Part shown: piece after piece, positions 3,986-4,983 of the stretch | Numbering within the stretch: position 1 is the first letter of the stretch | Layout: each line of letters starts with the position of its first letter | Source: a plasmid | Strand: one strand, 5' to 3' | DNA length: 5,594 nucleotides | Sequence record: NZ_CP036552.1 | Notes under the pieces: model-generated | Databases searched by the model: none | Told to the model about the DNA's origin: nothing | What the model saw: the letters and a program-made list of their open reading frames with translations, nothing else | Made by a program: the position numbers and the translations under genes

Positions 3986-4384
3986 TTAAATAGTTGCATA
4001 TGGGTCAAGTTCCTTAATCCGCTTACACAAAAAATCAAAGCGTTTCTTTGTAAGTGGTGTAAGCGTATCGAGATTATCTCCATCGAAATTCTCCCCAAAA
4101 ATAAGGTCGTTCATTCCTATGCCGTGATTGTAGTTCTCACGCACACAGTTGCGCAGCGTCCAAAGGTTACGCAGGTTTACCCAGTCTGCTGTGCGGCTCT
4201 TTACCCTGCGGAACAAGATAACGGCAGTCCGCAAATAGTGCCCCACATGGTCGTAATCGTGCAAGACACGTTTGCCCAAATAGTAAATATCCAAATCTTG
4301 TTTTTCTCTGTCCTCGACTACTTGACAGAGGAAGAATGGAATATCCTTCAGGTTATCCCATTCGATGTAGTCAGTTGGTTTCAT
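3986..4384 (-). CDS. Hypothetical protein, 132 aa, third gene of the mazEF operon; no family recognised
   Basis: ATG at 4384 (plus-strand CAT 4382-4384), 36 nt after the mazF stop with no intervening terminator. Stop TAA at 3988-3986. The protein has varied composition and charged/aromatic motifs (YYLGKRVLHDYDHVGHY, RENYNHG). The overlapping plus-strand ORF 3836-4456 is judged spurious. Confidence 0.5.
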   Translation of the reverse strand: MKPTDYIEWDNLKDIPFFLCQVVEDREKQDLDIYYLGKRVLHDYDHVGHYLRTAVILFRRVKSRTADWVNLRNLWTLRNCVRENYNHGIGMNDLIFGENFDGDNLDTLTPLTKKRFDFLCKRIKELDPYATI

Positions 4385-4420
4385 AATGTCTTATTTGCAT
4401 TTTTCTTTCCGTACTTTCCA

Positions 4421-4741
4421 TTATTCACAGAACATTTGCTGAAATACTTCACGTAACCTTTTTATCTCACTGAAATTCAAATCTCCAATCTTTCTTTTCA
4501 GCCGGCTTTTATCCACCGTGCGAATTTGATCAGTGGCTATCTCTCCTTCACGCCCGGCTACAGAACACAGAACCCGGTAAGGATAATTTCTTATCGTTGA
4601 GGTTATCGGAACAATGACTACTGTTGTAAGGTACATATTCAAATCTGAAGGAGTGACAACTACACATGGCCGTGTCTTTGCCATTTCACCCCCACGGGTA
4701 GGGTCTAACTCTACCCAATACACTTCATACTGTTCTACCAT
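4421..4741 (-). CDS. mazF: MazF/PemK-family mRNA interferase toxin (type II TA)
   Basis: VYWVELDPTRGGEMAKTRPCVVVT ... VVIVPITS ... ATDQIRTVDKSRL matches the MazF/Kid/PemK fold signature (GxE..KxRP.VV..; IxPxT). The preferred start is the ATG at 4741-4739, where ATGGTAG overlaps the mazE stop for translational coupling. The ORF-track start at 4747 is a TTG. Stop TAA at 4423-4421. Confidence 0.85.
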   Translation of the reverse strand: MVEQYEVYWVELDPTRGGEMAKTRPCVVVTPSDLNMYLTTVVIVPITSTIRNYPYRVLCSVAGREGEIATDQIRTVDKSRLKRKIGDLNFSEIKRLREVFQQMFCE

Positions 4742-4983
4742 GTCCAATCCTCAAACTTTTCATCCTCAAACACATCAGGGATAAGCAACTCATCATCCCC
4801 ATTCTCATGGGCACGTTTGGCAGCTTCCGCCCATCCCTGCCGTGGTTGTGCCTTTATCACAATATTGTTCCCGTCCAAAGAAATGCTCACAGCCGATTTC
4901 AAGGACAAACGCAACTGTTTCAATACTTCGGAAGGAAGTATTATCCCCTTGCTGTTTCCAATCTGAATAATATTCGTTACCAT
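4735..4983 (-). CDS. mazE: MazE/PemI-like antitoxin (AbrB/SpoVT swapped-hairpin DNA-binding fold), 82 aa
   Basis: The N-terminal IGNSKGIILPSEVLKQL is typical of MazE/AbrB. The acidic, Trp-containing C-terminal tail (DVFEDEKFEDWTW) resembles the toxin-binding tail of MazE. ATG at 4983 (plus-strand CAT 4981-4983). Stop TAG overlaps the mazF start. Confidence 0.8.
   Translation of the reverse strand: MVTNIIQIGNSKGIILPSEVLKQLRLSLKSAVSISLDGNNIVIKAQPRQGWAEAAKRAHENGDDELLIPDVFEDEKFEDWTW

Follow-up and report, generated by a model that had tools for sequence, protein, structure and literature searches.

ORF132, an orphan gene behind mazEF on a pBFP35-type Bacteroides plasmid, recurs among varied plasmid neighbours

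The mazE-mazF-ORF132 locus

We examined a 5,594-nucleotide (nt) stretch of plasmid DNA (NZ_CP036552.1; the window, meaning the whole stretch at its full length) in which the toxin-antitoxin genes mazE and mazF are followed by an open reading frame (ORF) for a protein of 132 amino acids (aa), here called ORF132. An earlier interpretation made without database searches (the sequence-only reading) had singled out this gene as belonging to no recognisable family. The window corresponds to one complete pBFP35-type Bacteroides plasmid of 5.6 kb, a type whose original description is reportedly that of Soki et al. 2010. At least 80% of its length is matched by 10 PLSDB plasmid records, one of them from Bacteroides fragilis (NZ_CP036549.1; 5,595 bp, 99.9% identity), and one published account assigns 5,594/5,595-bp plasmids of this kind to pBFP35 (NC_011073.1), a cryptic plasmid whose replicon is Rep_1 (PMC6927303). 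Since contigs from four RNA libraries (X3, X6, X9, X11) link position 5594 back to position 1, the window represents one turn of a circle.

The three genes lie on the same strand (Table 1). As the sequence-only reading had recognised, the first two form a MazEF pair. The mazE product belongs to the MazE/AbrB family by its Pfam match, its position upstream of the toxin gene and the overlap between the two genes, and it is annotated as AbrB/MazE/SpoVT in near-identical plasmid records. The mazF product is a MazF/PemK protein that covers positions 1-109 of the 109 in the PemK_toxin profile; it also matches the NCBIfam MazF model (E 4.8e-16), under that model's equivalog cut-off. Overlap occurs within ATGGTAG (4741-4735), where the mazF ATG runs into the mazE TAG stop codon, and the ORF listing offers TTG at 4747 as an alternative mazF start. 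ORF132 follows across a spacer that, as described earlier, contains neither a promoter motif nor a hairpin.

Bacteroides promoters have a -33/-7 consensus, with TAnnTTTG as the -7 motif. A candidate promoter of this type is located upstream of mazE, and a scan for sigma-70-like promoters matched the same place (5046-5019). While TAnnTTTG occurs 15 times in the window (7.0 expected), it is absent from the minus strand between the mazE ATG and the ORF132 ATG (4385-4983). Because ORF132 has no promoter motif of its own, co-transcription with mazEF from the mazE promoter would be the simplest reading of the locus.

The hairpin that had been proposed to end the operon was also borne out. It starts 68 nt past the ORF132 stop codon, folds as RNA at -30 kcal/mol (z-score -4.08; 0 of 200 shuffled sequences folded as well) and was also detected as an inverted repeat (I2). 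Like an intrinsic terminator, it has a G+C-rich stem, a T8 run on one strand and A8 on the other, and greater stability than expected by chance, with an unusually long loop. A simple terminator scan missed it because the scan permits loops of 3-8 nt only. Judged by these features, the hairpin is likely a bidirectional intrinsic terminator. Contigs of run X11 break at 3917/3940, beside the hairpin, which is a weak hint only. It should also be noted that the T8 run (3861-3868) is one base shorter in the X9 contig and that related plasmid records range from 5,563 to 5,595 bp, so homopolymer runs either vary or are mis-called.

The copies of direct repeat D3 bracket the hairpin. Homology with the copy of this module on a large plasmid stops inside the D3 copy at 3950-3969, at about 3959 (megablast match 3959-5179), and other contigs in two RNA libraries share just 3969-3988 and 5135-5159 with the window, both at the edges of the module. 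The repeat and module edge at 3950-3969 may be a recombination junction.

Under the arrangement that we propose for this pBFP35-type plasmid, the transcript that carries mazE and mazF would have ORF132 as its final cistron. It would begin at the candidate promoter, presumably autoregulated by MazE/MazF as in other type II systems, cross the spacer and stop at the hairpin.

Table 1. Features of the window and the genes found next to ORF132. Positions are those of the window, except for the contig L091 row; for genes next to ORF132 the distance is given.
Feature	Position or distance	Strand	Details
Candidate mazE promoter	5017-5047	minus	TTTG at 5047-5044, 19-nt gap, TATATTTG at 5024-5017; 33 nt upstream of mazE ATG
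mazE antitoxin gene	4735-4983	minus	82 aa; Pfam MazE_antitoxin (PF04014), E 9.4e-07, 29.1 bits (cut-off 24.7)
mazF (PemK/MazF) toxin gene	4421-4741	minus	106 aa from ATG; Pfam PemK_toxin (PF02452), E 8.4e-27, 94 bits (cut-off 23.1)
mazF-ORF132 spacer	4385-4420	minus	36 nt, A-rich
ORF132	3986-4384	minus	132 aa; orphan family
Hairpin (likely terminator)	3861-3917	both	A8 at 3917-3910; 8-bp G+C-rich stem 3906-3899/3876-3869; 22-nt partly paired loop; T8 at 3868-3861
Direct repeat D3	3950-3969 and 3821-3840		20 nt; copies 90% identical, 129 nt apart
Relaxase gene	5389 to window end, then 2-1045		spans the window ends
Lipoprotein-like cargo gene	1115-2041	minus	no clear family
Lipoprotein-like cargo gene	1860-2438	plus	no clear family
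IS21-type transposase gene, contig L091	1755-3335		rve and Mu-transposase C-terminal domains; second ORF beside it; replaces mazEF
Upstream MazF	36 nt; 49 nt	co-oriented	pBFP35-type; ~98-kb pMMCAT-type plasmids
Upstream YafQ	5 nt	co-oriented	pBACSA01 (L001)
Upstream RelE-like	abutting	co-oriented	L033; ORF132 copy broken
Upstream Fic-domain gene	22 nt	co-oriented	502-531 aa; resolvase gene before it, ArdC after ORF132
Upstream unknown genes (five, unrelated)	11-71 nt	co-oriented	117/179/140/89-96/435 aa; mostly behind resolvase, often facing convergent HU gene
Upstream Rep3, or Rep3 plus 64-aa gene	27-29 nt (Rep3)	co-oriented	
Downstream Rep3 (ORF132 first)	10-14 nt past ORF132 stop		group of small plasmids; own TAnnTTTG ~25-30 nt upstream of ORF132

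Conservation and predicted fold of the ORF132 family

ORF132 is a real gene under strong purifying selection. The sequence-only reading had named conservation and codon-position bias as the signatures by which the gene should be judged, and both are present. Among 37 alleles (the distinct full-length copies from the fetched loci), median pairwise dN/dS, the ratio of nonsynonymous to synonymous substitution rates, was 0.095 (395 pairs with dS > 0.05; range 0-0.22), and 79, 54 and 127 of the 132 columns at codon positions 1, 2 and 3, respectively, were variable. The sense frame is open in 37/37 alleles, and the overlapping antisense ORF (3836-4456, plus strand) in just 17/37.

A word-indexed protein search gave matches for 187 of 189 candidates at E ≤ 1e-3, and an exhaustive all-length search of 1.84 billion cluster representatives gave 111 matches, 29 of them at ≤ 1e-30. 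Five of the matches are long (>1,100 aa) and multi-stretch, and the two of these five that were inspected (P0159 and P0195) are repeat proteins. ORF132 was found by tblastn in 73 plasmid records, and 547 of the 582 candidate stretches from a metagenome scan were relatives. When 19 divergent sequences (to 30% identity) were aligned, F58, W68, R82 and E83 were invariant, and Y34, Y50, A54, N70, L71, L74, L77, R78, N86, H87, G88, T112, D127 and A130 were conserved in at least 90%. The conserved core comprises W68, N70, R78, R82, E83, N86, H87 and G88.

The ORF132 product is a soluble, mildly acidic protein of ~15 kDa (mean isoelectric point, pI, 5.5). A metal site formed by C20, H42, H46, H49 and C80 was considered; these residues are kept in the close family, but the idea was dropped because the His/Cys cluster is lost in distant members. 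One metagenome protein, P0112 (178 aa), joins ORF132 residues 1-103 to an HU domain (PF00216). Given how frequently an HU gene comes right after ORF132, P0112 is probably a frameshift or read-through rather than a true fusion.

The inability to place ORF132 in a family persisted once databases were searched. No family was matched in Pfam, NCBIfam or PADLOC at E ≤ 1, or in PHROGs at E ≤ 0.1, and a profile of 42 homologues reached a best E of just 0.46 against all PDB sequences. An AlphaFold2 model from the 42-homologue alignment (predicted local distance difference test, pLDDT, 89.7; predicted template modelling score, pTM, 0.86) predicts a short helix, three strands (21-25, 30-35, 38-44) and four helices (50-59, 71-87, 92-96, 113-126). 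Comparison of this model with PDB by Foldseek gave no match at E ≤ 0.001 (best RecX, E 0.44), VIA-align against 48,161 representative chains gave none at Z ≥ 5 (best Z 3.8, a designed protein), and BFVD gave none at E ≤ 0.001 (best a lipothrixvirus protein, E 0.02, TM 0.33); ESM Atlas yielded no usable match. Provisionally, the predicted fold appears new relative to PDB and BFVD. Literature searches found no paper characterising the protein.

Glycoside hydrolase family 28 (GH28) enzymes are beta-helical proteins of several hundred residues. Some database records name ORF132 'exo-poly-alpha-D-galacturonosidase', and a passage in one preprint repeats the name as that of a putative GH28 enzyme (10.1101/2024.06.19.599758). 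Beyond this product name and the preprint's statement, nothing favours the identification. No Pfam family, hence no glycoside hydrolase family, matched at E ≤ 1, and a protein of 132 aa with a predicted small alpha+beta fold is wrong for GH28 in both size and shape. The probability that ORF132 is such an enzyme is negligible, and the unsupported name should be regarded as a misannotation that has propagated.

The sequence-only reading had also noted a loose, unconvincing resemblance of RENYNH (residues 82-87) to the HEPN catalytic motif, and had listed a second toxin or a defence effector among the possible roles. One part of this suggestion gained weight: R82-x4-H87, which has the R-x4-6-H spacing of HEPN proteins, is the most conserved motif of the family, with R82 and E83 invariant and N86 and H87 nearly so (H87 in at least 90% of the divergent sequences). 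However, the rest of the protein does not resemble the one HEPN family compared, HepT (PF01934), as hhalign against a 23-sequence HepT alignment gave a probability of 0.7% over 21 aligned columns outside the motif. No Pfam family of the HEPN clan was matched at E ≤ 1, and PADLOC, which covers defence systems, returned nothing. The model has a three-stranded sheet together with its four helices and is predicted to place the motif at the C-terminal end of a helix. No HEPN chain appears among the fold matches listed, although the absence of one is no proof that the fold is lacking. Furthermore, no constant neighbour fits as an antitoxin, and ORF132 heads rep operons alone. A second-toxin role is unlikely because ORF132 lacks a constant partner gene, and we consider it very unlikely that ORF132 is an HEPN-like RNase serving as either a second toxin or a defence effector.

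Distribution, neighbours and proposed role

The 73 plasmid records are from Bacteroides (57), Parabacteroides (10) and Phocaeicola (5), with one labelled Acinetobacter. A scan of species genomes found 28 loci, most of them on contigs of ~3-6 kb or of tens to ~150 kb. In evenly drawn samples of 401 genomes each, 2 genomes of the phylum sample matched at E ≤ 0.001 (the centre genome, full-length, and a weak match with E 2.7e-4 over 43 residues), as did 10 of the family sample (7 full-length, 1 fragment and 2 weak). None of 19 candidate stretches in viral contigs was an ORF132 relative. In the collections searched, the family is confined to gut Bacteroidaceae and Parabacteroides, where it sits on plasmids or contigs that resemble them. 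A few loci are in metagenome bins labelled Lachnospiraceae, Oscillospiraceae, Selenomonadaceae or Bacillota, and the record labelled Acinetobacter seifertii (NZ_CP061575.1, H8; 5,568 bp) is 98.6% identical to the window. Both the Acinetobacter label and the Bacillota-type bins probably reflect contamination or mis-binning of a Bacteroides plasmid.

We surveyed the neighbours of 127 ORF132 copies (loci L001-L130; 53 different upstream flanks of 600 nt), taking gene annotations from the records and from Pfam. At least 12 different arrangements were found, several of them without any toxin-antitoxin pair. The sequence-only reading had considered ORF132 as a possible third member of the MazEF unit and had suggested asking whether homologues recur behind mazF-like genes. 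The survey does not support membership of a MazEF unit: contexts varied, constant co-occurrence with mazF was not seen, and the same gene lies behind YafQ, RelE-like, Fic, unknown or Rep3 genes, or before Rep3. A modelled complex of two MazF with ORF132 scored 0.00 against a mark of 0.32, a result neither for nor against binding.

A more general version of this proposal is that ORF132 is a third component or modulator of type II toxin-antitoxin modules at large, like PasC, acting for example in antitoxin turnover or toxin neutralisation. ORF132 is found directly behind MazF, YafQ, RelE-like and Fic genes (gaps 0-49 nt), has no promoter motif of its own on the window plasmid and, in the plasmids where it precedes Rep3, is divergent from a Phd-YoeB or Phd-RelE pair located 430-650 nt upstream. 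This proposal is nonetheless unlikely. No toxin-antitoxin pair is present in the complete 4,320-bp L002 or in the examined 5,086 of 5,747 bases of L112, and in several arrangements ORF132 is behind a resolvase and unknown genes, or behind Rep3. Moreover, the mechanisms of the neighbouring toxins differ (RNases versus the AMP-transferase family), and ORF132 alleles do not track mazEF. On pBACSA01 (L001), a second, 65%-identical ORF132 paralogue lies 837 nt further upstream; the two paralogues (1692-2090 and 2928-3326) share 65% and 84% identity with the protein encoded in the window and lie on either side of an RHH-YafQ pair.

Neighbouring replication genes suggest another possibility, namely a replication or maintenance accessory that, together with Rep, HU or resolvase, works on plasmid DNA to assist initiation, the control of copy number or the resolution of multimers. 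ORF132 adjoins a co-oriented Rep3 gene, in both orders and with gaps of 10-29 nt, at L003, L004, L015-L018, L024, L025, L099, L105-L109, L111 and L112, and in the window it is 494 nt upstream of the Rep_1 gene, also co-oriented. An HU gene lies within ~1.1 kb downstream in several arrangements, and a resolvase gene is upstream in several. However, ORF132 is carried by unrelated replicon types (Rep_1 rolling-circle in the window, Rep3 in other cases, and large plasmids), the contexts do not all have an adjacent DNA site in common, and the protein has no recognised DNA-binding domain and the acidic mean pI given above. One pBFP35 derivative recorded as complete and circular even lacks the first 54 ORF132 codons. 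A replication-linked function therefore seems rather improbable.

Transfer genes vary as well. The plasmids are of MOBV type here (two derivatives are typed MOBV by PLSDB) and carry MbpABC or a relaxase with MobC elsewhere. On large plasmids, ORF132 lies among resolvase, HU, ArdC, JAB-domain and N6 methylase genes, which relate to maintenance or establishment. No flank beyond ~10 bases is common to all contexts, although sub-groups share downstream flanks. We considered an integron-like cassette and rejected it, having found no boundary sequence common to the contexts.

Comparison of the window with the ~98-kb pMMCAT-type copy gave nucleotide identities of ~96% for mazEF, ~62% for the 5' two-thirds of ORF132 and ~87% for its 3' third, with homology ending ~25 nt past the ORF132 stop codon. 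In a maximum-likelihood tree of 27 rows, chosen as one or a few loci per context rather than all alleles, the two MazF-linked ORF132 alleles are separated by a branch supported at 99/97, and context labels require 12 changes against a possible minimum of 10. These sequence comparisons indicate that ORF132 alleles assort independently of mazEF and that the module is a mosaic. Another 132-aa coding sequence in pMMCAT (L156, 15421-15819) was considered as a second paralogue and proved unrelated (hhalign probability 0.2%).

Could ORF132 instead be cargo that benefits the host, such as an orphan, cytoplasmic immunity protein that counters an interbacterial toxin? The protein is small and soluble, is found in one host clade and shows mosaic allelic variation. 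One preprint reports the two ORF132-bearing plasmid types as commoner in extra-intestinal than in commensal B. fragilis (40% vs 27% and 18% vs 5%; 10.1101/2024.06.19.599758), an excess that would suit such cargo. If true, this would help explain why 'cryptic' plasmids are common. We consider it quite unlikely, as no homologue was found beside or fused to a toxin-domain effector gene, and dN/dS is uniformly low, unlike that expected of an arms race. Apart from the five long multi-stretch matches mentioned above, the all-length search of 1.84 billion representatives gave family members only.

There is, in our estimate, an even chance that ORF132 is an autonomous, portable plasmid accessory gene and not a MazEF partner. 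Host-directed action is favoured because the occurrence of ORF132 is independent of replicon, transfer type and addiction module, yet limited to one host group. From distribution and context, we tentatively suggest that ORF132 acts in trans on a host component, thereby aiding plasmid establishment or persistence. It is more doubtful that ORF132 founds a new family and fold and acts on a Bacteroidaceae-specific host process, either disarming a defence or stress pathway or tuning antitoxin turnover. If true, any plasmid with the gene would establish or persist better, whatever the replicon, transfer system or addiction module, and this would explain why recombination keeps attaching ORF132 to unrelated backbone operons. 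In the broader portable-gene reading, recombination would place ORF132 at the tail or head of an available backbone operon, whether toxin-antitoxin, resolvase or replication. The invariant polar patch predicted on helix 2 (R78, R82, E83, N86 and H87, with W68 and N70) would mediate the action on the host component, and the plasmid would benefit through, for instance, a block on one of the host's defence or stress functions.

Several observations weigh against an autonomous, host-directed gene. No known relative or structural analogue points to a biochemical role. Toxin genes of four families (MazF, YafQ, RelE-like and Fic) are directly upstream of ORF132 and Phd pairs are divergent from it, so a general toxin-antitoxin link must be kept in view. 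On small plasmids, including the window, ORF132 adjoins or nearly adjoins rep in the same orientation, which is compatible with a replication-linked role. Viral contigs contain no homologue, whereas many anti-defence genes are common to phages. On pMMCAT, ORF132 points away from the MobC-relaxase region, a poor fit to early expression from an incoming single strand. In all four RNA libraries, the assembled contigs contain the whole plasmid as a circle, and neither strand nor transcript ends can be read from them. Finally, CP103194.1 (4,743 bp; one of ten pBFP35-type records), which is the circular derivative mentioned above, lacks window positions 4223-5075 and thus the promoter, mazE, mazF and the start of ORF132, and in L091, a pBFP35-type metagenome contig, an IS21-type transposase gene lies 165 nt upstream of an ORF132 match that begins at residue 5. 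Since CP103194.1 lacks the mazEF-ORF132 module in part and L091 is disrupted, the module is dispensable for replication if the assemblies are right.

The remaining features of the window were also inspected. The pC194-type nick motif CTTGATA has 0 matches in the window. The best match of the two lipoprotein-like genes is weak (PG1828-family lipoprotein, E 0.0077); similar ORFs occur on ORF132-bearing Rep3 plasmids (L004, L016), as judged by their unaligned N-terminal sequences, and CP103254.1 (4,633 bp) lacks 1297-2257, which is most of both genes. In run X11, depth over 1284-1672 is 7-18 times that over the rest of the plasmid. NZ_CP192725.1 (L007-L009; 16,781 bp) carries three ORF132 copies, and because they recur at 5,594/5,593-bp spacing the record is either a head-to-tail trimer of a pBFP35-type plasmid or an assembly artefact.

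Comparison with known systems

In human gut Bacteroides, plasmids of the pBFP35 type and small plasmids related to them are very common, and on some of them ORF132 is one of only ~6 genes. Because these plasmids have few genes, and because ORF132 is under strong purifying selection and shared by unrelated replicons, it is a good candidate for explaining the success of 'cryptic' plasmids.

Resemblance to GH28 exo-poly-alpha-D-galacturonosidases is limited to the product name on some records, as there is no GH28 domain. HepT RNases have more in common with ORF132, namely the R-x4-H motif, a length of ~130 aa and a toxin-antitoxin neighbourhood. However, ORF132 differs from them in its profile and its predicted beta-sheet, and it has no MNT-type or other constant partner.

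ArdA, ArdB/KlcA, ArdC and PsiB are, like ORF132, small, soluble, mildly acidic, plasmid-encoded and independent of replicon and transfer type, and on large plasmids ORF132 has ArdC, an orphan methylase and a JAB-domain gene in its vicinity. In related plasmids, ArdC domains belong to a neighbouring gene and not to ORF132, which stands outside these families in having no Pfam match (E ≤ 1), fold match or viral-contig relative.

Three-gene toxin-antitoxin operons are known from plasmids, including PasABC of pTF-FC2 and the SecB-like chaperone 'TAC' systems. As in these systems, the locus combines an antitoxin gene, a toxin gene and a small third gene without its own promoter in one putative operon on a small mobilisable plasmid. 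ORF132 shows no sequence or fold similarity to known proteins in the searches made, and its alleles assort apart from mazEF. Unlike the third genes of PasABC and TAC operons, it is tied to no one toxin-antitoxin family and is also found behind Rep3, resolvase-linked and unknown genes. A gene that trails a toxin-antitoxin pair need not be the third component of that system.

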